Positions 903-42,765 of a DNA stretch of 54,698 bases are shown piece after piece. The translations under genes and the position numbers were made by a program. The stretch lies in IMG/VR virus record IMGVR_UViG_3300032334_000224, positions 1 to 54,698 of that record, one strand, 5' to 3'. Position 1 is the stretch's first letter, and each line of letters opens with the position of its first letter. Below the pieces are notes generated by a model. That model was not told the origin of the DNA and did no database searches. It saw only the letters and a list, made by a program, of their open reading frames with translations. Source of the stretch: a virus (Duplodnaviria; Caudoviricetes).

Positions 903-906
903 ATGG

Positions 907-935
907 TTGACTGTTTGGTAGCTTGATGCTACAAT
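907..935 (+). promoter_or_regulatory. sigma70-type early promoter P1
   Basis: TTGACT-N17-TACAAT with extended -10 TG. Confidence 0.85.
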
Positions 936-990
936 AATAACATGCTGAATATTTGGCATAACTTTAACACACACAGAAAGAGGTAACAAA

Positions 991-1293
991 ATGGCAACTG
1001 ATAAAAAGTTTAGCGTAGCGGGTGTTTCGACACTTGAAGGCAAGACCAAGATTCGTTTCGCGAATGATACGATGCGAATCAAGATCCTTGCAAAGAACGG
1101 CCACACCAACGTGGACCTGATCAATCTCCCCAACGAGATGACCAAGGCTGAGATCGCAGCATACATGACCGCAGAAGGTTTTGGTGCTGATAAGCCTGAA
1201 GTACAAGCGGCGATCGCTTACATCGCCAAGAAGAATCCTGCGCCAGTCGCAGTGAAACAAGCAGCCCCGCAGAAAGCTGCTGTTACTGCCTAA
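991..1293 (+). CDS. conserved hypothetical phage protein
   Basis: GAGGT SD, own promoter and downstream terminator. Confidence 0.8.
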   Translation: MATDKKFSVAGVSTLEGKTKIRFANDTMRIKILAKNGHTNVDLINLPNEMTKAEIAAYMTAEGFGADKPEVQAAIAYIAKKNPAPVAVKQAAPQKAAVTA

Positions 1294-1324
1294 TACGGTT
1301 CGCTCCCCGTAAGGCAGTGTTGAA

Positions 1325-1355
1325 AGGCCCTACTTTATGTAGGGTCTTTTTTTTT
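1325..1355 (+). terminator. intrinsic terminator
   Basis: AGGCCCTAC-TTTAT-GTAGGGTCT stem followed by a T run. Confidence 0.85.
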
Positions 1356-1357
1356 GG

Positions 1358-1386
1358 TTGACAAACCTAGCATCTGATGCTACAAT
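1358..1386 (+). promoter_or_regulatory. sigma70-type early promoter P2
   Basis: TTGACA-N17-TACAAT with extended -10 TG. Confidence 0.9.
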
Positions 1387-1417
1387 ACAACTATCAACTA
1401 AAGAAAGTGAGCGAAAC

Positions 1418-1660
1418 ATGAATAACAAACTAAAAGCCGCAACATTTGTAGTAATCTACACATTGGGCATCGTCCTAGCAGTTGGCACAGTCCAGCTCAT
1501 CCTTAACTACCTGGATCCCACGTTGGAGCAACTGGGAGTTGGTTTCTCAGTGCTGTTGTTGGCCTACGCTATGAAGATGATGTTTGATATGCGTTTGGGC
1601 CAGCTAGAAGCACGTGATCGCTTGAACAAGATCACTGAGAACAATCCTACACTTAAATAA
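1418..1660 (+). CDS. two-TM membrane protein
   Basis: ATG 1418 lies downstream of P2; two hydrophobic segments. Confidence 0.7.
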   Translation: MNNKLKAATFVVIYTLGIVLAVGTVQLILNYLDPTLEQLGVGFSVLLLAYAMKMMFDMRLGQLEARDRLNKITENNPTLK

Positions 1661-1664
1661 CTGT

Positions 1665-2042
1665 ATGGAAGACATCATCTTAAACTGCCTGCTGTTCTTT
1701 GTGGCATTTGGCCTAGGCGTGTTGGCTTCAGGTCATTTCCACAGGAAAATTCTTCATGAGCTGCTGCGGGAACTTGGAATCACTCCCCAGCAACTGGAAG
1801 AACTACAGCATCGATTAGCATCACAGATCGATGCTGGAGAGAACGGTCTAGAGTTGGTTGAAATCCGTCTCGAGAAGCACCAGGGATTGATATTCGCGTA
1901 TCGCTGCGATGATCATCAATTCCTAGGCCAGGGAACATCAATTGAGGACTTGACGAAGAGTCTCAGCAATAGGCTGCAGGGAGTTCGACTTGTGATCCGC
2001 AGCGAGAACGGTGCAGATCTGTTGCAAAAAAACAACACCTAA
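1665..2042 (+). CDS. membrane-anchored hypothetical protein
   Basis: N-terminal hydrophobic helix followed by a soluble domain (FLGQGTS). Confidence 0.75.
   Translation: MEDIILNCLLFFVAFGLGVLASGHFHRKILHELLRELGITPQQLEELQHRLASQIDAGENGLELVEIRLEKHQGLIFAYRCDDHQFLGQGTSIEDLTKSLSNRLQGVRLVIRSENGADLLQKNNT
2020..2037. promoter_or_regulatory. palindromic regulator site TGTTG-N8-CAACA (copy 1)
   Basis: TGTTGCAAAAAAACAACA, ending 10 nt upstream of the P3 -35. Confidence 0.65.
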
Positions 2043-2047
2043 ATCGG

Positions 2048-2076
2048 TTGACAGATTGGACGCAGAGTGCTATACT
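2048..2076 (+). promoter_or_regulatory. sigma70-type early promoter P3
   Basis: TTGACA-N17-TATACT with extended -10 TG. Confidence 0.9.
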
Positions 2077-2106
2077 AGAGGCATAGTAAGTAAACAGGAG
2101 CGTAAA

Positions 2107-2190
2107 ATGTCAGACACAGAAATCCTCGTAACAACAGCAGTGGTAACAGCAATCTTCTTCGTGAAGGTCTGGATCCTCTCTAAGATCTAA
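2107..2190 (+). CDS. 27-aa single-TM microprotein (not in ORF track)
   Basis: AGGAG at 2096-2100; MSDTEILVTTAVVTAIFFVKVWILSKI*; first ORF after P3. Confidence 0.7.
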   Translation: MSDTEILVTTAVVTAIFFVKVWILSKI

Positions 2191-2200
2191 GGACACACAA

Positions 2201-2536
2201 ATGAAACTACACATTAGCTGTCAGTTTATGGAAAACTACGGTGCCCACGATTGGGACGGAGTAGGTCAGTGCCCGCAACACTGGAAGTTCAAGGGTGGCG
2301 AAGACTACTTCTACCCCTTAGGTGATTCAGCAGCTGATTGGGACATTCCAAAGCTGGTTGATGCGCTGCGCGGTCGGGTGGAATGGGATGAGGACTACAG
2401 CCGCCAGTACATCGTAGGTACAGCAGTTGTGGAGGACGACTTCATGACTGAATACGAGAAGAGTCAGTTAGAGTACGATGGTAAGGTCACCTACCCGGCG
2501 GTGACACTGTTAGATCTCAACGAGGAGACAGCATGA
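2201..2536 (+). CDS. conserved hypothetical phage protein
   Basis: TAAGGA SD; ENYGAHDWDG..CPQ.WKFKGG motif. Confidence 0.8.
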   Translation: MKLHISCQFMENYGAHDWDGVGQCPQHWKFKGGEDYFYPLGDSAADWDIPKLVDALRGRVEWDEDYSRQYIVGTAVVEDDFMTEYEKSQLEYDGKVTYPAVTLLDLNEETA

Positions 2537-2649
2537 AAGCAGTGATAGTGATCCTGGCCCTTGCGGCCCTAAGTGCCTGCTCAACAGTAGCAGGAGTCGG
2601 TAAAGATATACAAAGCTCAGCTGAGTGGACCAAGGAGAAGATGAAGTGA
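2533..2649 (+). CDS. entericidin EcnA/B-family lipoprotein (not in ORF track)
   Basis: GAGGAG SD and ATGA overlap. MKAVIVILALAALSACSTVAGVGKDIQSSAEWTKEKMK* has lipobox LSAC followed by TVAGVGKDIQ. Confidence 0.8.
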   Translation: MKAVIVILALAALSACSTVAGVGKDIQSSAEWTKEKMK

Positions 2650-2915
2650 AATCCCTGATAATTGCAGCCATGATTGTAGCCGGGGTCGCGCCCGTGCAAG
2701 CCCAAGACATTACTCCACGTGAGCTGCTGGGCATCACCGTGGGAGCCATCATTGGCTACGAATTGACCAAGCAGCGAGACGAACCCCGCCCGGTAATTCA
2801 GCAGCAGCAGGTCATCATAGCCCACAGACACGAGCCACGTAGGGTTTGCTGGAATCGTCAGCTCTACAACGCAGGCGGTCCCCCTGTGATCGTTCAGGAA
2901 TGTCAATACCAATAG
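2646..2915 (+). CDS. secreted protein with glycine-zipper-like segment
   Basis: GTG 2646 after AAGGAG; signal peptide ending VQA; LLGITVGAIIG. Confidence 0.7.
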   Translation: MKSLIIAAMIVAGVAPVQAQDITPRELLGITVGAIIGYELTKQRDEPRPVIQQQQVIIAHRHEPRRVCWNRQLYNAGGPPVIVQECQYQ

Positions 2916-2933
2916 TGTTGTAAAAATACCACA
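2916..2933. promoter_or_regulatory. palindromic regulator site (copy 2)
   Basis: TGTTGTAAAAATACCACA, ending 10 nt upstream of the P4 -35. Confidence 0.6.
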
Positions 2934-2943
2934 GTCTTTTTGG

Positions 2944-2972
2944 TTGACATTTTGGACAACAGGTGTTATACT
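2944..2972 (+). promoter_or_regulatory. sigma70-type early promoter P4
   Basis: TTGACA-N17-TATACT with extended -10 TG. Confidence 0.9.
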
Positions 2973-3001
2973 ATGTACATAGTAAGAAATAAGGACAAGA
3001 G

Positions 3002-3226
3002 ATGATAAACACCTGTTTGCAATGGCTAGGAACTACAGCGTTAATCGCAATGTATGTAGTGATGAGCTTCTACCCTAACCTGCATCCACTGAACATTCTG
3101 TTGGGACTCTGCGGTGGTGTCTGCTACTTTGCTTGGAGTTACAGAGTCCGTAACAAACCTCAGCAGCTGGTTAACATGGCAGGGATCTTGGTCTGTGCCG
3201 CTGGACTATTAAAGGTATATCTATGA
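3002..3226 (+). CDS. three-TM small membrane protein
   Basis: TAAGGA SD; three hydrophobic helices. Confidence 0.75.
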   Translation: MINTCLQWLGTTALIAMYVVMSFYPNLHPLNILLGLCGGVCYFAWSYRVRNKPQQLVNMAGILVCAAGLLKVYL

Positions 3227-3441
3227 TACTCAACAACCTAACAGATCGTCAACGCTTGGTAGCTGATATCCTTTGGATGAGCGAAAGCAAGGAAGACCTC
3301 AACCTTAGGCTGCGAAGCCTCCCACGTGAGGATCAATTCTCCGCAGCAGCGATCACTGAATTGATGATCATGGGCGGAGACGAGGTCAGCAATACCCAGG
3401 ACGCAGCTAGGGTTTTAGCTAAGTTTCGGTTGACGAACTAG
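3223..3441 (+). CDS. hypothetical protein
   Basis: ATGA coupling to the previous gene. Confidence 0.7.
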   Translation: MILNNLTDRQRLVADILWMSESKEDLNLRLRSLPREDQFSAAAITELMIMGGDEVSNTQDAARVLAKFRLTN

Positions 3442-3458
3442 CATTTTGGACATATAAT
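3430..3458 (+). promoter_or_regulatory. sigma70-type early promoter P5
   Basis: TTGACG-N17-TATAAT. Confidence 0.85.
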
Positions 3459-3490
3459 AGACACATAGCAACAAACAGTAGGAGCGATAT

Positions 3491-3697
3491 ATGACAATCA
3501 CAGTAGCACAAATGATCCAGGCATTGCAGGCATTGCCTCAGGACGCAGAGTTGGTAGTGACTGCCACAGGTTATTACTGTTATTCGGAGTTGGGCGACAT
3601 CATGTTGCCAGAAGCCTACACCATAGAGGGTGAGGACGAGGATATCAAGCAGGGCACACAGGTGTTCCGCATCGGCCACAGTCATCAAAGTTATTAA
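3491..3697 (+). CDS. hypothetical protein (MTV.QLI..LQ.LP.DA.V type)
   Basis: AGGAG SD; N-terminus typical of small early phage proteins. Confidence 0.75.
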   Translation: MTITVAQMIQALQALPQDAELVVTATGYYCYSELGDIMLPEAYTIEGEDEDIKQGTQVFRIGHSHQSY

Positions 3698-3706
3698 GGA
3701 GCTGAT

Positions 3707-3946
3707 ATGAAAATCAATGAGATCCAGACCTACAAGACCTTCGGTACAATCCAATGCGTACTGGATGAGGATGGTCGCAAGTGCTATAACTATACGCACA
3801 CATTCTTCGGCGAAACTGTCACGGAAGACACCCTGAAAGCTGCCCGAGAGATGCTGGAATACGATCAAGAACAAGCACAGAAGATCCGTGCCGCGATCAA
3901 CACACTGCGTGTGAGAGGCTACAAAGTCTATAAAGAAATCGGTTGA
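3707..3946 (+). CDS. hypothetical protein
   Basis: TAAGGAG SD. Confidence 0.75.
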   Translation: MKINEIQTYKTFGTIQCVLDEDGRKCYNYTHTFFGETVTEDTLKAAREMLEYDQEQAQKIRAAINTLRVRGYKVYKEIG

Positions 3947-3971
3947 CAGTTTGGACAACTGGTAGTATAAT
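3943..3971 (+). promoter_or_regulatory. sigma70-type early promoter P6
   Basis: Perfect TTGACA-N17-TATAAT. Confidence 0.92.
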
Positions 3972-4002
3972 ACACACATACAAACGCAACTAGGAGCAGG
4001 CA

Positions 4003-4221
4003 ATGGACTACCCAAAACGCATTATCCCGGGCTTCGGTGAAGTGGGCGTAGACTCTGAAGCATCACCAGGTAACGGCAGCTACTATGTAAAGGTCTATGA
4101 CGGCAGCTACGACAGCTTGGGATTTGACACAGAAGACGAAGCCTATGCTGAACTAGTGGCCATGCGCGAGGAACTCCGTGATGCTATCCAGGCCATGCGC
4201 GAGGCAGACAGCCGTATATGA
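4003..4221 (+). CDS. hypothetical protein
   Basis: AGGAG SD after P6. Confidence 0.7.
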   Translation: MDYPKRIIPGFGEVGVDSEASPGNGSYYVKVYDGSYDSLGFDTEDEAYAELVAMREELRDAIQAMREADSRI

Positions 4222-4313
4222 TGGACATCAGAGACTCAGCAGCACTGGTCTTTATCGTGGCAGTCTTGCCCACAATCCTACTAGGGTTATTGATCTTTTG
4301 GTTGACAATCTGA
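4218..4313 (+). CDS. 31-aa single-TM microprotein (not in ORF track)
   Basis: ATGA overlap; MMDIRDSAALVFIVAVLPTILLGLLIFWLTI*. Confidence 0.55.
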   Translation: MMDIRDSAALVFIVAVLPTILLGLLIFWLTI

Positions 4314-4330
4314 TGTTTTGGATATACAAT
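4302..4330 (+). promoter_or_regulatory. sigma70-type early promoter P7
   Basis: TTGACA-N17-TACAAT. Confidence 0.88.
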
Positions 4331-4362
4331 ACACACATACATTAACAAACAAGGAGCAACAC

Positions 4363-4545
4363 ATGTCAGAACGTTCAGCATTTTTCGTATTCATCGTAGG
4401 CCTGCTTATGACCATCGGCGCTGTGGGCGGCATTGAGAACTCAGTAGAGAACTCTGCATTACTGTCTAGCATGGTAGTGGCCATAGTGGGTCTGTTAGTG
4501 ATGTATTGTGGTGTGTTGGGATTGCGTAATGCAGACTTATACTAA
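4363..4545 (+). CDS. two-TM membrane protein
   Basis: AAGGAG SD before ATG 4363; GLLMTIGAVGGIE. Confidence 0.75.
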   Translation: MSERSAFFVFIVGLLMTIGAVGGIENSVENSALLSSMVVAIVGLLVMYCGVLGLRNADLY

Positions 4546-4741
4546 GCTCACTGCTGTTGTGTTAACCCTAGCACTAACAGCCTGTGGCACTATACACGAT
4601 CGCAGAGATGCTCCTTGGGATCCACCCGCAGGCTCAGGACGCACACTGTTAGATCAGATCCCTAACTGGGATAACGCAGCAGCAAAGATCTGCTGTGGCC
4701 GTCTGCGTGTATGTGAAGCACATCAGAGCCCACGTTGTTAG
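4529..4741 (+). CDS. Cys-rich lipoprotein
   Basis: Signal peptide with lipobox LTAC; C-terminal CC..C..C. Confidence 0.7.
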   Translation: MQTYTKLTAVVLTLALTACGTIHDRRDAPWDPPAGSGRTLLDQIPNWDNAAAKICCGRLRVCEAHQSPRC

Positions 4742-4757
4742 CAGCTGAAGGACACAT

Positions 4758-4982
4758 ATGGGATACATCGTATACAACACAGCATCAGGACGTGCAGATC
4801 GCTACTATAAACTAGAGCGCACAGCACGAGCACAGGCTACAAAGCGCAACAGAGATCCCTACAGGTCAAAGTTCGAAGCCGGCGAGTACCGAGCCATCAG
4901 CTATGCAGCCTACGAAGGTGTGCTGATGGGACTCAAGGATGCCAACCTGAAGTACTGGGATTGGTTGAACTCGGCGAGGTGA
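4758..4982 (+). CDS. basic hypothetical protein
   Basis: AAGGA SD. Confidence 0.7.
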   Translation: MGYIVYNTASGRADRYYKLERTARAQATKRNRDPYRSKFEAGEYRAISYAAYEGVLMGLKDANLKYWDWLNSAR

Positions 4983-5038
4983 TGGACGATGGTGGGGTGA
5001 TGCCTCCATGGTGGGGGTGGGGGGCATAGTGTGTGTAG

Positions 5039-5056
5039 TGTTGTATTTTAGCAACA
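5039..5056. promoter_or_regulatory. palindromic regulator site (copy 3, inverted)
   Basis: TGTTGTATTTTAGCAACA; reverse complement TGTTGCTAAAATACAACA matches copies 1 and 2. Confidence 0.6.
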
Positions 5057-5160
5057 GTGGTAGCAAATCACCACCCTGAAATGATAAGTACTCCACCCAA
5101 AATTTATGCGCGACCAAATTTTTATCCCTGTATACCCATTTCAGCACAATAAATATCACT

Positions 5161-5358
5161 ATGCGTAAACTCTATCTCACACTAAATCTCACTCCCGCTC
5201 CAGTGTTTTTCTTGGGCTTTATTCACAGTTTCTATTATCCCAGCATTGTCTGCGGCACAGATCATGCCATGACTATAATGTGGTTCACCATGTTCGTTGC
5301 GCATTTGGCACCGTGGGTCATGTATCTACAGCAGCGTTACCTTTCCAGGAACACTTAG
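5161..5358 (+). CDS. small membrane protein
   Basis: TAAATA 5150-5155 lies 5 nt before the ATG; hydrophobic. Confidence 0.6.
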   Translation: MRKLYLTLNLTPAPVFFLGFIHSFYYPSIVCGTDHAMTIMWFTMFVAHLAPWVMYLQQRYLSRNT

Positions 5359-5535
5359 GCAACAGTGATAGTTGCCCTGTATGACACTCCACGCATCCCA
5401 GTAGTACATTTCCACTAGATCTCGACGATCTTCTACCCACATGAGATCACACATCTGTATACGACCGCCCGGACCCTGTATGACACAGTCCCAACGGTTT
5501 TGGCTATTGCGAGCATGATGTTCAAGAGTGATCAT
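5326..5535 (-). CDS. hypothetical protein
   Basis: TATATA-N5-ATG (5541-5546) supports a start at 5535 (MITLEHH...). Confidence 0.5.
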   Translation of the reverse strand: MITLEHHARNSQNRWDCVIQGPGGRIQMCDLMWVEDRRDLVEMYYWDAWSVIQGNYHCCLSVPGKVTLL

Positions 5536-5565
5536 TACTGTATATAGCACTAGATATATAACTCT

Positions 5566-5646
5566 ATGTATACACCCATACCCCAAGACTCAGTTCTAGT
5601 TGAAATCATTCTGGAACTGCTAAAACTATACTCTACTACCCTATGA
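5566..5646 (+). CDS. 26-aa microprotein (not in ORF track)
   Basis: TATATA-N5-ATG; MYTPIPQDSVLVEIILELLKLYSTTL*; ATGA overlap with the next gene. Confidence 0.45.
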   Translation: MYTPIPQDSVLVEIILELLKLYSTTL

Positions 5647-5861
5647 CTATTTTTATTCCAGTGTTGATTATCTGCATAAATGCTCAGTGCGAGTTCCAGC
5701 AGGCCATGACCTATTATCTTGCGGAATCACAGTGTCGCACGGTCATGCACACACAGCGAGATGCCATGCGAACTCTGACTCTACGTGCAGGCACCACAGC
5801 AGTTATAGAAGGCACCTGCATCTCTGCTGACATCAAGGCCATTAGAGGCTATTCCCTATAA
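5643..5861 (+). CDS. Cys-containing hypothetical protein
   Basis: Hydrophobic N-terminus with C-x4-C. Confidence 0.65.
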   Translation: MTIFIPVLIICINAQCEFQQAMTYYLAESQCRTVMHTQRDAMRTLTLRAGTTAVIEGTCISADIKAIRGYSL

Positions 5862-5862
5862 C

Positions 5863-6066
5863 GTGGAGTTACTGTCTAGAGTTCTTCCTAAGCTGATATC
5901 TATGCTGTTGTCATGGATGGACTCCGCTAATCTACGGGATCAGATGTACTCACAGGCACAGCGTATAGAGATCCTAGAAACAGCACTGGAGGACATAGAT
6001 CGTGTTAATGCAGCTGGTGCTAAGGATGCTATAATAGCTAAAATCGTTGCTAACACTAGAAAATAA
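5863..6066 (+). CDS. coiled-coil hypothetical protein
   Basis: Follows the previous gene directly; heptad-like sequence. Confidence 0.55.
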   Translation: MELLSRVLPKLISMLLSWMDSANLRDQMYSQAQRIEILETALEDIDRVNAAGAKDAIIAKIVANTRK

Positions 6067-6086
6067 ACTGCGTATATAATAGAAGT

Positions 6087-6165
6087 AAAAAAATCTGCGC
6101 TTAACACTTCGTGTAAAAAACCGTTTACGCTTCGCGCTGTCAAAATTTCTGCGCCCGGCTTCGCC
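6087..6165. other. cluster of three triloop mini-hairpins plus TCTGCGC repeats (candidate origin/priming signal)
   Basis: ACAC-TTC-GTGT, CGC-TTC-GCG and GGC-TTC-GCC in an intergenic gap. Confidence 0.5.
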
Positions 6166-6201
6166 TGCTGGTAAGTATATGACCCTACAAGGACAACACC
6201 T

Positions 6202-6555
6202 ATGACACTCTCACAAATCATCGCAGCCAATCTAGCAGCACTGGTTCTGCTTTACTTGGTATATCATCGTATCACTTGGGCAAAAATCCGTGAATGCTAC
6301 GGCATGTGGTTTACCCGTGAATATTGGACAGACTATAATACTGTGGAATTTTTAAGCTGGACGGCCAAGGCCATGATCATCGTTCCTGGTTTGATCTTTG
6401 GCCTACAGATATGGTGGCTTTACTTCTTTACACTGGTAACAAGTCTGACACTGATCTGGGCCAGTGAAAAGAAACTGTTGCCCACACTGGTGGGATTTAA
6501 CACCATTTGGGCTTGGATCAGCTGCATGGTTCTAGCACAGCATTTGGTTAAATAA
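6202..6555 (+). CDS. multi-TM membrane protein
   Basis: AAGGA SD; several Trp-rich hydrophobic helices. Confidence 0.8.
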   Translation: MTLSQIIAANLAALVLLYLVYHRITWAKIRECYGMWFTREYWTDYNTVEFLSWTAKAMIIVPGLIFGLQIWWLYFFTLVTSLTLIWASEKKLLPTLVGFNTIWAWISCMVLAQHLVK

Positions 6556-6579
6556 TACATAGTTCAAAGAGGACTCACT

Positions 6580-6798
6580 ATGCCATTTTTAATCGTTAAA
6601 GCACGTAACACTGTCACTGGACAGACTCAAAAACAACAGGACCTAACAGGCCACAGGTTCACCATGGAACAGCGCAGTCTAGCTGAAGATCGCGCTCGTC
6701 AGTTTGCAGAAACACTGAGTCAGCGCACTGGAGATACTTGGACGGGATTAGTTGAAGAATACGAGCCCGTGGCTCGTATCATTGATACAGATAATTAA
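6580..6798 (+). CDS. hypothetical protein
   Basis: TAAATA 6549-6554 and GAGGA SD. Confidence 0.75.
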   Translation: MPFLIVKARNTVTGQTQKQQDLTGHRFTMEQRSLAEDRARQFAETLSQRTGDTWTGLVEEYEPVARIIDTDN

Positions 6799-7213
6799 CT
6801 GAATCTGAGTTTTCTCTATAAGTTTTGGCCCCATTCCTATGATGGAACTTGCGGGCCATTTCTGTCTTTGGGCTCAGGGTAACGTAGGTGGTTACTTCAG
6901 GTTGGTCTGCTTGTATCTGTTTTTGTGCCTGTTGTATAAGCTCGCGTCCAGCACCTGCTGCATAACTCCAAATAGTGTAAAACACCGCGGTATTGGTGTT
7001 GACAACAGAGTCAGCTAGGTCTTCCACTGATTCGGGTATTTTAGCCAGGAACTTCACACAGGTCACTGCCAGAGGCTGACCATCATCATCTTTCAACACA
7101 AAGATTTTACTGTTGTCGTTGACTCGCTGTTCTCGGGGGATTTCTGGACGTACTGGGTCGTCCTTGATCAAGGCTAATAGTTGGTCTTCCAGGGAATTAA
7201 TGATGTGTAACAT
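6779..7213 (-). CDS. GNAT-fold protein resembling the malonyl-CoA decarboxylase catalytic core
   Basis: Motifs AVFYTIWS, G.GRELI, TYVTLSP and F..RNGA. Confidence 0.65.
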   Translation of the reverse strand: MLHIINSLEDQLLALIKDDPVRPEIPREQRVNDNSKIFVLKDDDGQPLAVTCVKFLAKIPESVEDLADSVVNTNTAVFYTIWSYAAGAGRELIQQAQKQIQADQPEVTTYVTLSPKTEMARKFHHRNGAKTYRENSDSVNYLYQ

Positions 7214-7241
7214 AGTGTGTCGTGCTCGCTTATAACAGTTT

Positions 7242-7270
7242 ATTATATGCGTATTTATCGACTATGTCAA
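7242..7270 (-). promoter_or_regulatory. dual promoter: sigma70 with nested late TAAATA
   Basis: TTGACA-TAGTCGA-TAAATA-CGCA-TATAAT (17-nt spacer). Confidence 0.8.
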
Positions 7271-7274
7271 ATTT

Positions 7275-7976
7275 TTAGTTTTTTGTGTTTTCCAAACTGA
7301 GTTCGCGATCTTCCAACTCACGGATTTTCTCACTGAGCTCATCTATGACACCAGTGTTGCGGAGTGCCTTGAATGCGATGTTTTCCGTAGACCATTCACC
7401 AGCACGTTCCAGGCCTGCTTTGCGCATGTTGGTGATCTTGTCTTTGACTGCCTGCAGTCGTTTGGCATCACCTGTGATTATGGCCGCTGCAATGTCGTGT
7501 GTGACAGCAGCCACTTTGGCATCAATGGCTGTATCGTTGACATTGGGTTTGGCTTTTTTAGGTTCAATGACCCAACGATCACGCATGATGCTGTAGACGC
7601 CCGTTGAATGATGTGGTTCTGCAGAGCCCTGTATATAACACTCCACAGGCAGTCCTTTGATAGTGATGTTGTGATGTTCGCCCCAAAGAGCTTTTTTAGC
7701 TGAAAACAGCTCACGTGCTTCTTCGCTGACTTCACCTTTGACCACTAGATGTAGATCTAGATCACTGAACTTGGTCCAGTTGTAGTTGGCATTTGAACCA
7801 GTGACTGTGATGTCTATGATGTCCAAATCCACGCCCACGAACTTTTCAAATACTTCTGCGATACGTTTCAGCTTGTCGCTGACTCTGGGATCCAACTGAT
7901 CGCCGTCCCAGATCTTGGGATTCAGTGTAGAGTTAACACTGACATAATAGCTACCGGCAAACTCGTTTAGTCTCAC
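7275..7976 (-). CDS. Pol-beta superfamily nucleotidyltransferase
   Basis: hGS..SDLDLH motif plus a third carboxylate in PVECY; GTG start; MRLNEF N-terminus. Confidence 0.85.
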   Translation of the reverse strand: MRLNEFAGSYYVSVNSTLNPKIWDGDQLDPRVSDKLKRIAEVFEKFVGVDLDIIDITVTGSNANYNWTKFSDLDLHLVVKGEVSEEARELFSAKKALWGEHHNITIKGLPVECYIQGSAEPHHSTGVYSIMRDRWVIEPKKAKPNVNDTAIDAKVAAVTHDIAAAIITGDAKRLQAVKDKITNMRKAGLERAGEWSTENIAFKALRNTGVIDELSEKIRELEDRELSLENTKN

Positions 7977-7977
7977 C

Positions 7978-8337
7978 TTATACTCCGTACTTGTTGCGTT
8001 TAAGCTGAGCCACTGGGCTCTGCGTGTCTACAGTATGCGATTCGTGGCTCTTTTTATCTGTGATAGCACGGCCATTGACCTTCATATGCTTGTTGGCCTT
8101 GTTAATGATGTCAGCATCGCCCTGTGAATAAGCAATAGTAACCATTTTGCTGCTGCTTGGCCCTACTTCAGACATGTTGGTATCTTCAGGTGAACCTGCC
8201 AGTGCTATACCGTATCTATACATGGAATAGACATTGCCGTTGTCCAGTTGCGGAAACATCTGCATGTCTGGAATAGCAGCCTTGGCGCTGCGTCTTATTG
8301 GCTTTGAGGATTCGTTGATAAACTCGCTGGCTCTCAT
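7978..8337 (-). CDS. putative internal head protein, paralogue 1
   Basis: MRASEFINE start; Y..YR.G.A.A; C-terminal RNKYGV. Confidence 0.7.
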   Translation of the reverse strand: MRASEFINESSKPIRRSAKAAIPDMQMFPQLDNGNVYSMYRYGIALAGSPEDTNMSEVGPSSSKMVTIAYSQGDADIINKANKHMKVNGRAITDKKSHESHTVDTQSPVAQLKRNKYGV

Positions 8338-8734: not shown

Positions 8735-8974
8735 TTATTTAGCCCACATTAGATGATAGTTGACAGCAGTGATTTCGTCATAGAACTCTGCTACTAACTT
8801 GCATTTGCTTGTGGATTTATCCAGCACCAGTTGGCATTGATGCTTGGGCTGTTTCAGCAGCCATTCCACATGATCTATGCCCAGGGTTTTCTGCACCTTG
8901 GGCCAATCTATGTCAATGTACTCGCCTTCACTGGGAAACCACTGCGTTAAAACAACACGTCTAGTCTTCATCAC
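8735..8974 (-). CDS. hypothetical protein
   Basis: Packed between the helicase and the 8731 gene. Confidence 0.7.
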   Translation of the reverse strand: MMKTRRVVLTQWFPSEGEYIDIDWPKVQKTLGIDHVEWLLKQPKHQCQLVLDKSTSKCKLVAEFYDEITAVNYHLMWAK

Positions 8975-10415
8975 TGTCCATGTTATTCAGGATTTCACGT
9001 AGTTTGGTGCTTTCTACATGAGCCCGGACTTTGGGTTTGGCTAGATCAAACCCTTCTTTGGGCGTAGCACGTTCCCACTCTGTGTTTCCAGATTCTTCGC
9101 GATTCTGCTGTATTGTGGTCTTGCGTTTGATATCGTCGATGATACTGCTGGCACCACGTGATGTTGCACCACTGTGCTCCTGCTCATCTTCTGGCAGATC
9201 TGTGATTTTCAGAGATTCTAGATTGAACTCTAAGTCCACTTTCATGCCTACACCACTGCTTGAACGAGTTTTCATCAACTGTATTTGATAGCGTCCACGC
9301 TCACGCATTGCTCGACTGGTAAAGATACCAAACACGTTATCCGCAGTTTGAATCTTACTCAAGCCACCTGAAATATGACTGTGATCAAACTCAACTTCTT
9401 CAACTGCTCCACGATTCAACTGTGCCGCAGTTACAAACACACAGTTCTTTTCAACTGCCAAGTTACGCAGTTCTTCTGACACATACTTGTCTTTGATAAA
9501 CAAGTCTGCTGGTGAAATCTTTTTACTTACAGGCATCAACAAGTCCAAATAGTCAACTAACAACACGTCAACTTTGCTGCCTGTTTTGATTTCATATTCT
9601 TTCAAATAAGCTCGAATGTCATTGGCTGTTTTGCCCGATGGCATATACTTGACCTGTAGTTTGCCTGACTTCTTGCCAATGATACGAACCTTCATTTCCA
9701 CATCATCGATGTCTTTGAAAATCTCTTTGGTTGCAATACCAGTTAACATTGCATCAATACGCATAGACACCAGTTCTTCTGAAAGTTCCAATGTTAGGTA
9801 CACAACGTTCAAGCCCAACAATGCCCAGTTAACACCTAGATTTGCCAAGAACAATGATTTACCTGCTCCTGATCCGCCTGCAAAGATGTTGAGTTCTCCA
9901 CGGTTCATACCACCAAACAGTCTACGATCTAAACTAGGCCATCCTGTAGATACCTGTCCGTTCTTGTCTTTGATCTTCATCAATCGACCGCGTGGATCAG
10001 CAAAGTAATCAGTGCCCATGTCTTTGGCTAGGCCGATCTGTACTGCTTCTTTGACCATTACTTCCACAGCACCGTAGTCATGCTTTTCTAACAGATCTGC
10101 AGAGTTAATGATCGCACGTTCTAGTGCTTTGTGTCGAGTAAACTGTTCGAACTCATCCATGAACCAATCCATGTGTCCATCTTTGAGATCTTCGGGTCTA
10201 ACAAGGTCAGTTCTGCAGTTGGCATTGACCATGTTGTAGTCTGGCAACACGTTATACTCTTTGGCATAGACGTTGATAAACTCTGCCGCATCTTGTAGTT
10301 TGCGGTCAAATAGTGTGTAATCAAAAATACCTTGACAGCGTACAAATGTTTCAGCATCTGACAGCATTATTTCAAGATATAGTTTCTGTACTTCGGGTCC
10401 GTAATCTTTAATCAT
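8961..10415 (-). CDS. DnaB-like replicative helicase (T4 gp41-like)
   Basis: Walker A GGSGAGKS, VDYLDLL, TAAQLNR, KTR. Confidence 0.95.
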   Translation of the reverse strand: MIKDYGPEVQKLYLEIMLSDAETFVRCQGIFDYTLFDRKLQDAAEFINVYAKEYNVLPDYNMVNANCRTDLVRPEDLKDGHMDWFMDEFEQFTRHKALERAIINSADLLEKHDYGAVEVMVKEAVQIGLAKDMGTDYFADPRGRLMKIKDKNGQVSTGWPSLDRRLFGGMNRGELNIFAGGSGAGKSLFLANLGVNWALLGLNVVYLTLELSEELVSMRIDAMLTGIATKEIFKDIDDVEMKVRIIGKKSGKLQVKYMPSGKTANDIRAYLKEYEIKTGSKVDVLLVDYLDLLMPVSKKISPADLFIKDKYVSEELRNLAVEKNCVFVTAAQLNRGAVEEVEFDHSHISGGLSKIQTADNVFGIFTSRAMRERGRYQIQLMKTRSSSGVGMKVDLEFNLESLKITDLPEDEQEHSGATSRGASSIIDDIKRKTTIQQNREESGNTEWERATPKEGFDLAKPKVRAHVESTKLREILNNMDSDED

Positions 10416-11905: not shown

Positions 11906-12018
11906 TTGTAAATGAACGGATCTCTTTCTCGTAGTTCTTTGAGTTTTCTTTTAAGACGATAATGATCTCTAATCGCAATGTAAGGACTTATCAGAAAATC
12001 TATAATCTTTCTAATCAT
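11902..12018 (-). CDS. 38-aa basic microprotein coupled to the carbamoyltransferase (not in ORF track)
   Basis: MIRKIIDFLISPYIAIRDHYRLKRKLKELRERDPFIYK*; overlaps both neighbours. Confidence 0.7.
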   Translation of the reverse strand: MIRKIIDFLISPYIAIRDHYRLKRKLKELRERDPFIYK

Positions 12019-13036
12019 TTTCTTTTTCTCTCTTTAACTTGTTTTCTAAATTCTTCAAGGCCATCTGCAGTCTAATCTGTCCACGCTGTGCTGTTTTGAT
12101 TAGGTCAACGATTACAAACAGCTTGCCATATCTCTGTACAGCATCGGCACAGTCTTTTACATCTGCATCCCAGTTCGGAAATGCCACAGCCCAGTCGTTT
12201 TCTATGGCTCGATTAATCAAAATCAAACCAGCTTCATCTTGGTCAGGAACTACGATAACTTCGCTGCCTAGACTATTAATTATTCGTTCTTGCTGTTCTG
12301 CTACGTCATTGGTTAACAGTGCTACACCGCCGATTGATAATGCGTCAAACGGGCCTTCACAAACAAACACATACTTCTGTTCTTCTGATTGTGCATCTAC
12401 ATTAAAAACAAAATGCGGGTGTTGATCTGATAGATATTTAGGTTTTCCGTCCCTGATTTTACGAGCAGTACTGCCTACAATTTTACCTTCGTAGGTGAAG
12501 GCGATAATAACCCTCTCATTATATCCTGCTGCAGGAGACCAGTATAGTTGTTTACTGTTAGGATCAAATCCTCTATTGATGACATATTGAATAGTGTCTA
12601 TTAGATTTTGTCTTAGATCTTCAGTAAGACTTATTGGATCACAAGCCCATTCCCATAATGTTTTAGAGTCTTCAGGCAAATCTTTAGGCCCAAAGACAAC
12701 TTTAGCATCTTCGATCTTATGTTCGTATTCTGGACTTTCTGTTTTAAGTGCTTCAAATATCAGTGTGTTGATGTCGTCATCGCTGGCTCCTAGCCATTTA
12801 CAGAGATTTTTAAACTTGTTGGATATTGGACGACCGGGTAACCAGCTGGCTGTGAACTTGCAGTTAAAGCAGTTGAATACTATTCCTTGATCAAACCTTA
12901 GCCCTCCACGTTTACGAGTATCCGGACTATGCCCGCGATGACCGCAACATGGTGCATTGAAACTAGTCCAACCAGAAGGGCTACTCTTAGCACGAGGTGG
13001 GATTAGTGTTCGAAATTTGTCAACAACTAGAGTCAT
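12011..13036 (-). CDS. DNA primase (DnaG/gp61-like)
   Basis: Zn-binding APCC..FNCFNC; TOPRIM EGPFD and PDQD. Confidence 0.93.
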   Translation of the reverse strand: MTLVVDKFRTLIPPRAKSSPSGWTSFNAPCCGHRGHSPDTRKRGGLRFDQGIVFNCFNCKFTASWLPGRPISNKFKNLCKWLGASDDDINTLIFEALKTESPEYEHKIEDAKVVFGPKDLPEDSKTLWEWACDPISLTEDLRQNLIDTIQYVINRGFDPNSKQLYWSPAAGYNERVIIAFTYEGKIVGSTARKIRDGKPKYLSDQHPHFVFNVDAQSEEQKYVFVCEGPFDALSIGGVALLTNDVAEQQERIINSLGSEVIVVPDQDEAGLILINRAIENDWAVAFPNWDADVKDCADAVQRYGKLFVIVDLIKTAQRGQIRLQMALKNLENKLKREKEND

Positions 13037-37497: not shown

Positions 37498-39084
37498 TCA
37501 AAAGCCGCTGCTTACAAAGATCGGCAAGGGCATCTGTTCCTCTGTGAGTTTTTCAGTCATTTTATCGTAGATCTTAGGATCCCAGTCTGCTAGTACGCCT
37601 GCCATGCGTACAACCAGCAGCGTAGAGCTTACTAGATCGTCATGCTCGCCGGTTTTAGCACCAAAGCCGACGCCATGTGCTACAAAAGTTTTTAGTTCGG
37701 AAATCAGTGCTTTTGAGTTGATTTTCATTTTCTTGGTTTCAATCATGTTTTTCAACTGACTACAAGTTGCGATTTTAGTACGGTGAGTTGTGTTAAATCC
37801 CTTTCGGAACTTGCGCATATGCCCTCTACGGATAGGTTCGCTTAGGAATAATCCATGGAAGTTTTCTTCACCTAAATCACTGATAACAATCAATGCTGCT
37901 TCGCCAAGTGTGTTGTTTTCAACAGTATAATACAGTTGAGGAGTGCCGCCTTTTTCCACACCGCGATCATTGATATATTTTAATATCTCTCGCATATGCT
38001 TGACTTGTGCTTGGATAGGAGTTAAGTTATGTCTCCACTCTGCTACCTGTATCATACTGGGCATTTCGTAGACCTGTATAGCACCGTAATCTCCGCCGGT
38101 ACCTAGGCTAGGATCTAATGCTATAAGATATGTGGCTTTGGGATCGATGTCTTTGTACCAACGTGTTTGTCCCATTGTCATCACAGGATCTATACCCTGC
38201 ATTTCTGCTAACTTGACAGCGTTGATCAGTGTTTCGTCAAAAATCAAGAACTCGCAGTCAAATTCTCGACGGAAGCGTTCTTCACCGATTTTTGCACGTT
38301 CTGTTTGTGCCCATTTCTCATCACGATCTGGATGTTCTGCCCAGTGTGCGAAGTATGGGAAGAATCCGTTTACACCTAGTTTTGTTTCGTTGCCGTATTC
38401 GTCAAACTTGTTGTTGGCTTCAGTCCAAATCATAGCAAACTGATCTTCGTCTGAGTTTGGTGTTGATGTAATAATAGCACGACCACCTGTTGACAATGTT
38501 GGTGATAGCGCAGTCCAGAACTCTTTGGCTTTTTCTGGTGGTTGCACGAATGCAAACTCATCACAGTAGATCAATGAAAGAGATTTACCACGTCCTGTGT
38601 TTTCTGTAGTTGTTGTTGCCTGTATACGGGCACCGTTATCATATTCGATGGTATTACGGTTATAGCTGATAACACCTGCACGGATAAAGTCGGGTAAGTT
38701 TTCATAACCGTAACGATAGCGGTTCATAATATCCTGCGCACCTTCATACTTGTGAGCAGCGATCAATACCTGTGCTTCCGGAACAAACATAGTGAACCAT
38801 AACAGGTATCCGCAGGCGCAGGTGGTCTTACCCATCTGACGTGGCAACATTGCAATCACGTCTTTGTGATCGTTGTATGCTTCAATTAAGCGTACTTGAT
38901 ATTCGTAAGGTTCAAACTTAATAGCACCGCGGACTGGGTGCTGTATCATTAAAAAGTTACGCATGAAATACAAGGGTCCTGTAACAGGATCCATACATGC
39001 TTCTAGATGTTTTACTTCTTCAAGGGTATAACGTTCGGGCTTGTGAGCCTTCTTGATTAATACGCCGTCTAGTGATTTTGCCAT
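37498..39084 (-). CDS. terL: terminase large subunit (gp17-like)
   Basis: PRQMGKT, CDEFAF, TSTPN, ALDPS.G.GGD, HDDLV. Confidence 0.97.
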   Translation of the reverse strand: MAKSLDGVLIKKAHKPERYTLEEVKHLEACMDPVTGPLYFMRNFLMIQHPVRGAIKFEPYEYQVRLIEAYNDHKDVIAMLPRQMGKTTCACGYLLWFTMFVPEAQVLIAAHKYEGAQDIMNRYRYGYENLPDFIRAGVISYNRNTIEYDNGARIQATTTTENTGRGKSLSLIYCDEFAFVQPPEKAKEFWTALSPTLSTGGRAIITSTPNSDEDQFAMIWTEANNKFDEYGNETKLGVNGFFPYFAHWAEHPDRDEKWAQTERAKIGEERFRREFDCEFLIFDETLINAVKLAEMQGIDPVMTMGQTRWYKDIDPKATYLIALDPSLGTGGDYGAIQVYEMPSMIQVAEWRHNLTPIQAQVKHMREILKYINDRGVEKGGTPQLYYTVENNTLGEAALIVISDLGEENFHGLFLSEPIRRGHMRKFRKGFNTTHRTKIATCSQLKNMIETKKMKINSKALISELKTFVAHGVGFGAKTGEHDDLVSSTLLVVRMAGVLADWDPKIYDKMTEKLTEEQMPLPIFVSSGF

Positions 39085-39826: not shown

Positions 39827-40387
39827 TTAACTCCCTACAGGGCTTTTAGCACCGTTTTTATCTTGTTTATTTTTTGACATCTTGTATTCTGCGCCCATGC
39901 CGTCTTTCTTACGTTGCTTGGCCGTTTTCTCTAAATCTTTTAAGAAACCTTTGTTGAAATCAGCACCAAAGTAATCTTTGTGCTTGACTTTGGTATTACC
40001 TGCGTCTAACTCTTTTTCACTTAGCAGTGCTTCACCGCTGGGCTCGTCTTCAGCAGTTGGTTCTTCAGTTGGTTCACCGCTTCCACGTACACGGAAACAG
40101 GCTTCATCTAATCCCATCTCTTTAACTATCAATGCGATCTGAGGAGATGTTGTTGGATATTCGCAAATCACTTCAAAAATTGTAACTTCACAATTTTTCA
40201 TTTGAGGGAAGTCTAGCGGAGATTCTTGTATAGGCGTTGTACTGAGCTTTTCAAGCTTCATAACTCCACAGCAATCAAGCTGTGTTTTTAACTGCTTTTG
40301 AAAGTTCTCAGGTAACTCGCCGGCAACTTTGACCTTGAAGCTATAGACTTTTTTGCTTTCGGTAAGATAATCTTTAAAAGTTTTCAT
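39827..40387 (-). CDS. putative internal head protein
   Basis: MKTFKDYLTE resembles the T4 capsid-targeting sequence; TAAATA-N5-ATG. Confidence 0.7.
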   Translation of the reverse strand: MKTFKDYLTESKKVYSFKVKVAGELPENFQKQLKTQLDCCGVMKLEKLSTTPIQESPLDFPQMKNCEVTIFEVICEYPTTSPQIALIVKEMGLDEACFRVRGSGEPTEEPTAEDEPSGEALLSEKELDAGNTKVKHKDYFGADFNKGFLKDLEKTAKQRKKDGMGAEYKMSKNKQDKNGAKSPVGS

Positions 40388-41691: not shown

Positions 41692-42765
41692 TTAACCTAT
41701 CATTGTTTTTTGACTTGCGGGAGTGGTGTCTTGATTTGCTTTACTCTTAGGAAAGACCGCTCCTACTATCCCACCTACTGTAGAAATAGCTCCCGAGATA
41801 TTTCCAGGATTCGTTAAGATATTAACTGCTTCATTTTTTAGTTGATCTTTGGTTAGGCCTTTGAAGTTCTTATAGGTATTAATGGTCTTGATAGCAGTAC
41901 CGAGGAATCCACCAAAGCTGCCAAATGTTGCGCCGGATCCCACATCACCAAATATCTGTTCTAGGCCATCTAATACGCCGCCATCACCGGTAAGAGTAGC
42001 GACTCCGCCGCCTGCAACACTTAGTGGACTAGACACAGTATCATAATGTAACATGGCAAATCCTTTTGGACTATTGATTCTTACATTGCCTGCAGAATAT
42101 TGAACTGCTTCATATTCTAATGTCATTGTACTTTCGATAAAGTCACCTTCGGCATAGGCAACTGAACCGTGTTGCCATGATTTGATTCTAGGATTTATCA
42201 ATGTATACCCTAAGAAGCGTCTGCGGCTCATAGTATAGATTGATATCGATTTAAAGAAATCTACACTCTTGTCGTTGTCCATACCGTATCTAAATAGGTC
42301 TTTCTTTGTGTCAGTTGGTCTTAAATGATTTGCTTCAAACCCAGCTGATGGAACATGTCTATCAGAAACATAATAGCCATAATAAAGAGCCCACATCGCG
42401 TTAACAATACCGGCACTATCATCATGCATGGTAATATTAACATCATCATATTTGATTGATTTGTATAATAATTTTTTTCTATTATATTGATTTTTTACAA
42501 CACTTTCAAAACTAAACTTAGGAAGGTCTGCTGATTTGACTAACATACCAACTTCGTCTTTGTGCTTCTGTTGCCATTCTGCTGATTGTATTGCCGCAGG
42601 ATCTATTTCAAATCTTACATAGAAAAGAAACTTAGATCTCGGAGCGAGTCTAAATGTATCATCGACGAACATGCGGGTTGCATGTTGGAAGTTGGCGACA
42701 ATGCCCTTGGGCCGTGTTAACCCATTGACAGCACCATTTAAAAATCGAGTAAAGAAGTTGGCCAT
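41692..42765 (-). CDS. tail tube-like baseplate protein (gp54/gp48-like)
   Basis: LVKS.DLP, NQYNR, I.MHDD tube-fold pattern. Confidence 0.7.
   Translation of the reverse strand: MANFFTRFLNGAVNGLTRPKGIVANFQHATRMFVDDTFRLAPRSKFLFYVRFEIDPAAIQSAEWQQKHKDEVGMLVKSADLPKFSFESVVKNQYNRKKLLYKSIKYDDVNITMHDDSAGIVNAMWALYYGYYVSDRHVPSAGFEANHLRPTDTKKDLFRYGMDNDKSVDFFKSISIYTMSRRRFLGYTLINPRIKSWQHGSVAYAEGDFIESTMTLEYEAVQYSAGNVRINSPKGFAMLHYDTVSSPLSVAGGGVATLTGDGGVLDGLEQIFGDVGSGATFGSFGGFLGTAIKTINTYKNFKGLTKDQLKNEAVNILTNPGNISGAISTVGGIVGAVFPKSKANQDTTPASQKTMIG

Follow-up and report, generated by a model that had tools for sequence, protein, structure and literature searches.

Hairpins that are extruded from double-stranded DNA and serve as signals have been proven in essentially one phage system, the early promoters of phage N4. 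There, negative supercoiling extrudes the hairpins at physiological superhelical density; extrusion is determined by a C:G closing pair and a loop with a 5′ G and a 3′ A, and the variable bases of the stem need only pair (PMC4496689). Transcription from the N4 promoters starts about 11 nt downstream of the loop center, within a conserved sequence from −17 to +1, and depends on a giant virion RNA polymerase, encoded by the phage, with a T7-like domain. Mini-hairpins of the GNA/GCGAAGC type are found also at the primase site of phage G4 and in ssiA of RSF1010 (PMC13037366). The PeSLs of T4-type phages combine a stem-loop with an AT-rich tract and a promoter (PMC2839356, PMC4122927), and the T4 origin oriE contains evenly spaced direct repeats, whose role as iterons is described as undefined; T4 origins tend to be located near strand switches (PMC3016281). 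The determinants of hairpin extrusion in N4 recur in a 79-bp stretch (positions 6087–6165) of the viral record IMGVR_UViG_3300032334_000224, which was analyzed over its entire length (54,698 bp, linear; CheckV completeness 15%; hereafter “the window”). It represents the core of a conserved DNA element that acts in cis: an array of boxes and mini-hairpins, present at a single locus in jumbo myoviruses of one clade.

In the window, the first unit of the array comprises an A-tract and a box on the + strand (AAAAAAATCTGCGC, 6088–6100) of the ‘AAAAATCTGCGC’ type common to the relatives, followed after TTA by hairpin 1, ACAC-TTC-GTGT (6104–6114; 4-bp stem; ACAC-GAA-GTGT on the − strand). The second unit runs from an A-tract and box (AAAAAACCGTTTA, +, 6115–6127) of the ‘GTTT(T)A(C)CGC’ type, which occurs also at loci L205, L148, L112, L004, L082, and L198, directly into hairpin 2, CGC-TTC-GCG (6128–6136; 3-bp stem). 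In the third unit, an A/T tract and box (AAAATTTCTGCGC, +, 6142–6154) are separated by CC from hairpin 3, GGC-TTC-GCC (6157–6165; 3-bp stem). Hairpins 2 and 3 both contain GCTTCGC, the complement of the d(GCGAAGC) mini-hairpin. A first-pass annotation of this DNA had placed all three hairpins at these coordinates, with GAA loops on the − strand, and each of them is indeed present; the reading of the − strand fits published extrudable DNA mini-hairpins (PMC13037366, PMC4496689). The annotation had also noted boxes ahead of two of the hairpins, which are AAAAAAATCTGCGC before hairpin 1 and AAAATTTCTGCGC before hairpin 3; a third A-tract, AAAAAACCGTTTA, precedes the middle one. The A-tracts of the three units start at intervals of 27 nt and 27 nt. 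With evenly spaced direct repeats in three units at one locus, the array of the window has the anatomy of a set of iterons; several relatives have two units only.

Single hairpins of this kind are weak and common, and the three could in principle be a chance cluster of short palindromes without function. In the window, 33 hairpins combine a stem of at least 3 bp with a loop of TTC or GAA. However, the C..G closing pair is present in only seven of the 33, and three of these seven are in the array. Among 400 first-order Markov simulations of the window, none contained three such hairpins within 62 nt (five contained two), and the analytic expectation of triples of C..G-closed TTC/GAA hairpins is 1.5e-5. 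Together with the compensatory changes in about 37 other records and the fixed genomic position of the array, which are documented below, these results make a cluster without function extremely improbable.

The same composite array is present in about 37 other IMG/VR viral records, according to our reading of the listings. The number combines 25 of 78 matches of one pattern scan and 11 of 80 retrieved matches of another (three of the latter already listed) with further loci, including some of those that carry the gene of a 117-amino-acid (117-aa) protein; the other matches of the scans are chance matches or unrelated contigs. The carriers of the array are uncultured jumbo myoviruses of ~350 kb, mostly from freshwater, with a T4-like core of helicase, primase, UvsX, and gp32. 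Every copy follows the same grammar, consisting of an A/T tract, a box, a spacer, and a small inverted repeat around C-TTC-G. The box is a short GC box of the type AAAAATCTGCGC, AAATTTTGCGC, or GTTTTACCGC (also described as (T/C)TGCGC or TTTACCGC type) and is separated from the loop by 4–7 nt, with a single case of 11 nt. Units recur every 24–32 nt, with two or three per array and stems of 2–6 bp. The array is always co-oriented with its flanking genes, which places C-GAA-G on their template strand (the − strand in the window).

The genes on either side of the array vary among the relatives, and the array stays. In the window, it begins right after a stop codon, in a spacer of 135 nt (6067–6201) between two open reading frames (ORFs) on the + strand, 5863–6066 and 6202–6555, the latter encoding the conserved 117-aa protein, a membrane protein. 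This protein has 228 relatives in IMG/VR; at most of the 80 loci examined, its gene directly follows another conserved gene and no array is present, and the array is found in a subset of these 80 loci. The start of the 117-aa gene is overlapped by an 8-codon ORF (MTLQGQHL*; 6179–6205, +). In L137, L150, L152, and L156, the array is followed by a full-length gene (MTTLHTFGCS...), and the opening bases of the short ORF, GTATATGACC, match those of this gene. Judging from this match, the short ORF is probably a deletion remnant of such a gene.

No description of an element of this kind was found in the collection of open-access papers searched. The array would represent a DNA mini-hairpin signal in a new group of phages, with a new, tandem box-hairpin architecture. 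Units that look alike are present in a number of unrelated viral contigs (L095, L155, L157, L106/L164/L170, L121, and L139/L151), where an intergenic AATTTTGCGC is followed by a C-TTC-G hairpin with a stem of 5–7 bp. In L121, the unit directly adjoins three DnaA-box-like TTATCCACA repeats; in L095, L155, and L157, it adjoins a AAATAACG-N-CGTTATTT palindrome; the stem of the unit varies from contig to contig. These look-alikes were picked by the search pattern itself and are inconsistently oriented to their neighboring genes, and they were not used as support.

Evidence that the hairpins are under selection comes from their stems. We aligned 44 distinct hairpins, centered on the loop, which comprise all CTTCG hairpins of the array regions and five hairpins with TCT or TTT loops at the position of hairpin 1; the sample is modest, and its rows are related sequences. 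Left out were eight CTCTG/CTTTG sites with stems of 1–2 bp, seven of which are located in flanks without an array-type box, whereas the eighth (in L130) overlaps the first hairpin of the array there. The closing pair is C:G in all 44 hairpins. The second pair is G:C in 38 and A:T in 6 hairpins and is never unpaired; the third is C:G in 18, T:A in 11, G:C in 5, and A:T in 2 hairpins and is unpaired in 8. G-U wobble is absent from the second and third pairs (88 cells). The observed covariation score was reached by none of 500 shuffles, and sliding the 3′ partner by one column reduces the pairing from 70% to 23–31%. A compensatory change is readily seen in L208, where the ACAC..GTGT stem of the window is replaced by ACGC-TTC-GCGT in otherwise near-identical units.

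Of the 44 hairpins, 39 have a TTC loop, which is GAA on the − strand. TCT and TTT loops are restricted to stems of 4–5 bp, and the stems of 2 bp, which are found in 9 of the 44 hairpins, are restricted to TTC, i.e., to exactly GCTTCGC. The relation between loop and stem length suggests selection on the stability of the hairpin. Covariation of the stems and the loop/stem-length relation together imply that pairing, and apparently also stability, is under selection. Thus, the same hairpins with compensatory changes, for which the first-pass annotation had proposed to search in related genomes, do occur there, and the lack of conservation that it had considered fatal to its reading was not observed.

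The exclusive use of Watson-Crick pairs, the stems of 2 bp, and the A(n)T(n)-GCGC tracts suggest that the selected structure is formed by DNA rather than by RNA. This bears on a second explanation, according to which the units are binding sites for proteins in the early transcript, similar to the nut sites (boxA and boxB) of phage lambda, and function in antitermination, processing, or stability. The units are co-oriented with the genes and occupy a transcribed spacer that directly follows a stop codon and has many early promoters upstream; the distance between box and loop is constrained (4–7 nt, in one case 11 nt). Some of the boxes (GCGCUUAAC) appear to resemble boxA in part. However, G-U pairs are missing among the 88 cells of the two covarying pairs, 9 of 44 hairpins have 2-bp stems that RNA could not hold, and DNA accounts better for the A(n)T(n)-GCGC tracts and for the exact GCGAAGC complement. 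Moreover, RNA folding of the array region gave no signal on either strand (z = 0.84 and −0.38), and Rfam had no match to positions 4500–7500 at E values of up to 1. A transcribed RNA whose structure explains the hairpins, which the first-pass annotation had named as an outcome that would speak against its proposal, is therefore not indicated, and we consider nut-like sites unlikely.

Another RNA structure was considered and rejected. T4 reportedly has CUUCGG hairpins in its intercistronic RNA (said to go back to Tuerk et al. in 1988), to which the occurrence of CTTCG in the spacers between genes of a T4-like phage bears some likeness. The corresponding C(UUCG)G register, which is a slide by +1, pairs 31% of the cells, compared with 70% in the register of the triloop, in which the C and G of CTTCG pair with each other around 3 nt.

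The array is a single-locus element. A strict pattern was found at one place (or in two adjacent units) in each of ten related records, including records of 356 kb and 282 kb, and reversed-pattern controls gave no matches. In one long relative, G006, C-TTC-G hairpins form a trio nowhere but in the array (6570–6636). With a covariance model built for one unit, we searched the window, the entire G006, and five more whole records; the records searched in full include two of 356 and 353 kb (96–98% complete). All matches at E values of ≤0.05 fall into one array per record, with four exceptions: a weak match in G006 (L186) that is not array-like, a marginal match in G011 (E = 0.049), and two lone units that are homologous to each other. 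The latter are located at 351,078–351,112 of G006 (L194:11078–11112; − strand) and at 107,455–107,489 of G013 (L318:2455–2489; + strand), are inverted with respect to the array, lie 12–14 kb upstream of it, and share flanking sequence. A further lone unit, with a AAATTTTGCGC box and a 7-bp TTC hairpin, was recognized by eye in G012 (329,530–329,561; L314:9530–9561; + strand; model E = 0.45), where it is likewise inverted and lies 20.8 kb upstream. No lone inverted unit was seen in the searched DNA of G011, G014, G008, and G007. The lone unit of G013 is followed by a promoter, TTGACT-N17-TATAGT, and that of G012 by TATAAATA. An invertible segment between the array and its inverted partner was rejected; the gene of an AAA+ ATPase keeps the orientation of the array in all six records that contain both, and no inversion was seen.

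The position of the array relative to the replication genes is fixed. In seven of seven records, it is located 2.4–5.9 kb past the 3′ end of the helicase gene, which has the convergent orientation; the nearby strand switch is convergent, not divergent. In the window, the genes for the DnaB/gp41-like helicase and the primase occupy positions 8961–10415 and 12011–13036 on the − strand.

The region upstream of the array is packed with promoters. The window contains seven strong sigma-70-type cassettes (GGTTGACA-N17-TAtAAT) between positions 905 and 4341 (+ strand), all of which read towards the array. Each cassette has the form (TTTT)GGTTGACA-N17-TA(T/C)A(A/C)T-ACACATA, measures 40–45 nt, and is located ahead of a small ORF. 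Counted by regular expression, the long relatives have 16 (G006), 16 (G013), 27 (G012), 23 (G011), and 20 (G014) such promoters, again all directed towards the array, and the last of them is located 1.5–3.0 kb ahead of it. This block looks like an early, host-takeover region, and its cassettes in the window look like strong, host-type early promoters that are the true PeSL-like repeats of this phage. The lone inverted units described above are situated at the other, far edge of the block.

On its downstream side, the array is followed by a different type of motif. In the window, TGGTAAGTATATG (6170–6181, +), 6 nt after hairpin 3, contains TAAGTA in place of the TAAATA of the relatives and is a putative late-type or extended −10-like element. 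In the 70 nt that follow the last hairpin, 11 of 25 arrays contain TAAATA, compared with 2% of random 70-nt windows, and eight more contain TAATTA or TAAGTA. In the window, TAAATA is found exactly 5 nt before the start codon of eight genes, including those for terminase and tail tube, and is a common arrangement at gene starts; examples are upstream of 37498–39084 (−), 41692–42765 (−), 39827–40387 (−), and 5161–5358 (+). The TAAATA-N5-start arrangement leaves no room for a ribosome-binding site, which suggests late-type promoters that would give rise to leaderless mRNAs. The element resembles the late promoter of T4. A combination of the box as −35 and TAAATA as −10 was rejected because their spacing, judged by eye, varies too much (about 12 to 19 nt).

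The element thus marks the downstream edge of the early region, just ahead of a late-type, TAAATA-like promoter. The invariant features of its − strand, which is the template strand of the flanking genes, match the determinants of hairpin extrusion in N4. On this basis, we tentatively favor the reading, by analogy with N4 and quite possible, that supercoil-extrudable hairpins and protein-binding boxes form a boundary or switch between early and late transcription. Negative supercoiling would extrude the mini-hairpins, as it does in the early promoters of N4; a protein of the phage or its host would then bind each box together with its extruded hairpin, and the array, once bound, would form a polar boundary or a switch separating early from late transcription. 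It might stop or otherwise handle early read-through before it reaches the convergent replication genes, set the state of the adjacent late promoter, or do both.

Several points weigh against a boundary or switch. Nearest-neighbor folding of the array region as DNA gave no signal (z = −0.27 on the − strand and 0.01 on the + strand), and each hairpin scores only −1.2 to −2.1 kcal/mol, with parameters that may omit the measured extra stability of GNA mini-hairpins. Because the folding energies are this unremarkable, the hairpins are supported by their clustering, conservation, and covariation rather than by computed energy. The stems, which have 2–6 bp (3–4 bp in the window), are shorter than those of N4 (5–7 bp). 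No candidate for the binding protein was identified, and the role of a boundary is not an obvious fit for the lone inverted unit upstream, where no outward promoters were seen. Dozens of other late-type promoters in the window, as well as the seven early promoters, lack an array, which means that the array is not a general part of promoters. Canonical intrinsic terminators exist upstream of 37498–39084 and 41692–42765, so that a plain terminator is available to the phage as an alternative. Finally, the single locus next to the helicase-primase module fits an element of replication equally well.

A plain terminator, or a PeSL-like cassette that ends transcription and serves as a homology anchor for gene shuffling, would be in keeping with the variable region of ORFans around the array, with flanking genes that change while the array stays, with the clustering of contig ends upstream, and with the published layout of PeSLs, consisting of stem-loop, AT-rich tract, and promoter (PMC2839356, PMC4122927). 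However, the array occupies one locus, its hairpins reach only −1.2 to −2.1 kcal/mol, and the spacer at 6067–6201 contains neither a sigma-70-like site nor a T-run after a hairpin; the real PeSL analogue of the window is the seven-copy cassette at 905–4341, which lacks hairpins. Such a function is therefore very unlikely. The specific identities were also rejected: a PeSL for the missing sigma-70-like site in 6067–6201, the presence of one array per record, and the weakness of the hairpins, and an intrinsic terminator because neither strand of 6067–6201 has a stem of at least 5 bp with a T-run and because the A-tracts precede the hairpins.

The first-pass annotation had proposed a hairpin-based signal for replication or packaging. 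Of this proposal, the conserved, hairpin-based cis element stands. A fixed packaging end is unlikely, because the array is deep inside several long records. Many arrays are located a few kilobases from a contig end (51 nt to 6.6 kb), but these distances vary and the array is internal in G008 and G011–G014, for which reason a packaging site or physical end was rejected. The breaks upstream of the array are probably explained by the repeated promoter cassettes and the variable genes. As regards the replication part of the proposal, the genomic context is at least as suggestive of transcription; the position at the distal end of the early promoters and upstream of a late-type promoter, the co-orientation with the genes, and the convergent switch would all suit a transcriptional role.

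As a replication origin or priming signal, the array would provide iterons or single-stranded initiation sites, and its C-GAA-G hairpins would be recognized by an initiator, by a primosome of the gp59/gp41/gp61 type, or by a primase. This explanation draws on the presence of one locus per ~350-kb genome and of a distant inverted partner in three records, an arrangement that recalls two-site origins. An example of a two-site origin is the ori/crr of phage P4. It draws also on the conserved location next to the helicase-primase module (seven of seven records) and close to a strand switch, on the even repeats of T4 oriE and the tendency of T4 origins to lie near strand switches (PMC3016281), and on the similar mini-hairpins at the G4 primase site and RSF1010 ssiA (PMC13037366). 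A further point is a conserved AAA+ ATPase of the family phrog_1250, encoded 1.2–15 kb upstream of the array, which has a weak P-loop likeness to Cdc6 and RFC.

Other features are difficult to reconcile with an origin. A long A+T-rich unwinding element is missing (A/T runs reach 13 nt at most, and the GC content of 6001–8000 is 0.45), and because the switch is convergent, forks moving rightward would face about 330 kb of head-on genes. Since the stems vary from unit to unit, the repeats cannot be read by one sequence-specific dimer, and a pure replication signal would need neither the constant co-direction with the flanking genes nor the promoter that follows. Moreover, the linkage between the AAA+ gene and the array is loose. 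We therefore regard an origin or priming signal as somewhat unlikely. The AAA+ ATPase itself (~300 aa) is encoded at L177:4040–4936 in G006, with homologs in L317, L315, L322, L320, L314, L026, and L083–L086. Its gene is always located in the early block, and the 6 kb that the window has ahead of the array do not contain it. The resemblance of the protein to Cdc6 and RFC has E values of 0.25–0.97.

Between the transcriptional boundary that we favor and an origin, there is a broader conjecture, which we consider rather unlikely. Jumbo myoviruses without an N4-type virion RNA polymerase may employ supercoil-extruded C-GAA-G hairpins of the template strand and boxes in the style of N4 as sites for the primosome or primase of the phage (a cruciform-type origin) or for a transcription factor or polymerase, with the array and its inverted partner bracketing the early region. 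An N4-like giant RNA polymerase was not found: a profile search with PF00940 gave no matches in G006 and G012, although the control of the search was likewise silent. The three largest ORFs of G006 match PHROG families of tail-fiber and structural proteins.

The gene set of the window is that of a myovirus with a T4-like core, comprising helicase, primase, UvsX, UvsY, a gp32-like single-stranded DNA-binding protein, the large terminase, and the sheath and tube of the tail. Related metagenome records reach 353–356 kb, with completeness values of 96–98%. By their helicase, the nearest isolates are jumbo phages of the PA5oct type (54.6% amino acid identity). Isolated phages gave no megablast match to positions 4500–7500 of the window; in isolates of the PA5oct type, the gene order past the helicase differs, and the sole match of the pattern in PA5oct is located in coding sequence that is apparently repetitive. 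The first 7,200 bases of the window have a GC content of 0.45–0.49, compared with about 0.36–0.45 in the rest, and encode small ORFs on the + strand without PHROG matches. The convergent block starts with a gene that matches the malonyl-CoA decarboxylase C-terminal (GNAT-like) family (6779–7213, −) and is conserved beside the array region also in G006; the second gene (7275–7976, −) matches a nucleotidyltransferase family.

The array has a conserved companion upstream, a spacer of 178 nt (4983–5160, +) before the ORF at 5161. Its elements are, in this order, a G-rich 5′ part, a small central hairpin, AAATCACCACCC, GATAAGTAC, a box, and the TAAATA-N5-ATG of the ORF. The box (AAAATTTATGCGC; 5099–5111, +) is a copy without a hairpin, which matches the box of unit 3 in 12 of 13 positions, as had been noted in the first-pass annotation; no other site of the window comes within one mismatch of that box, and 0.09 such matches would be expected by chance. 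All seven long relatives examined have a homologous spacer of ~190 nt, located 0.85–1.9 kb ahead of the array; two of them (G007 and G008) have identical offsets and probably belong to the same strain. The homologs share near-invariant AAATCACC and ATAAGTAC blocks, followed by AATTTTTT(G/A)CGC (also given as AATTTTTTGCGC). The link between G-tract, box, and array drawn by the annotation is thus real and conserved in the seven relatives, with varying distances and intervening genes. The small hairpin shows some covariation, and the support from consensus folding is weak; possible identities of the element are a structured RNA and an activator-dependent (middle-type) promoter.

If one of the proposed roles, as boundary, switch, or origin, proves correct, the array would provide the first cis-acting handle on early/late expression or on the start of replication in these genomes of ~350 kb. 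Being short and easily recognized, it is also a practical marker for the border of the hypervariable early region; assemblies of these phages tend to break there.

Among the known systems, the iteron origins of the lambda type are one reference for the repeats of the array. With iteron origins, including T4 oriE, it shares even direct repeats at a single site, the vicinity of replication genes and a strand switch, and A-tracts (PMC3016281); unlike those repeats, its units differ in their palindromic part, and neither an A+T-rich unwinding element nor an adjacent initiator gene was found. The G4 origin and RSF1010 ssiA likewise have a compact mini-hairpin adjoining a recognized sequence, and in some records the array has an inverted partner (PMC13037366). 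However, those sites act on single-stranded phage or plasmid DNA, have longer hairpins, and have a known cognate primase; the inverted partners of the array are 12–21 kb away, not adjacent. With the PeSLs, it has in common a conserved intergenic stem-loop, an AT-rich tract, and a location among shuffled ORFan neighbors in a hyperplastic region, but PeSLs occur as many dispersed copies that contain a sigma-70 promoter and form stable terminator hairpins, whereas the array is confined to a single locus and to mini-hairpins (PMC2839356). The N4 promoters are hundreds of base pairs apart at the genome end that enters first, whereas the array is one tandem arrangement deep inside the genome; there are three promoters in N4 and three hairpins in the window. 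Like P1–P3 of N4, the array has a GC-rich heptamer, variable inverted repeats, a loop of 3 nt with a 5′ G and a 3′ A, and a C:G closure (PMC4496689, PMC13037366), and in both cases the hairpin is located on the template strand, upstream of co-oriented genes, with stems that are free to vary as long as they pair.

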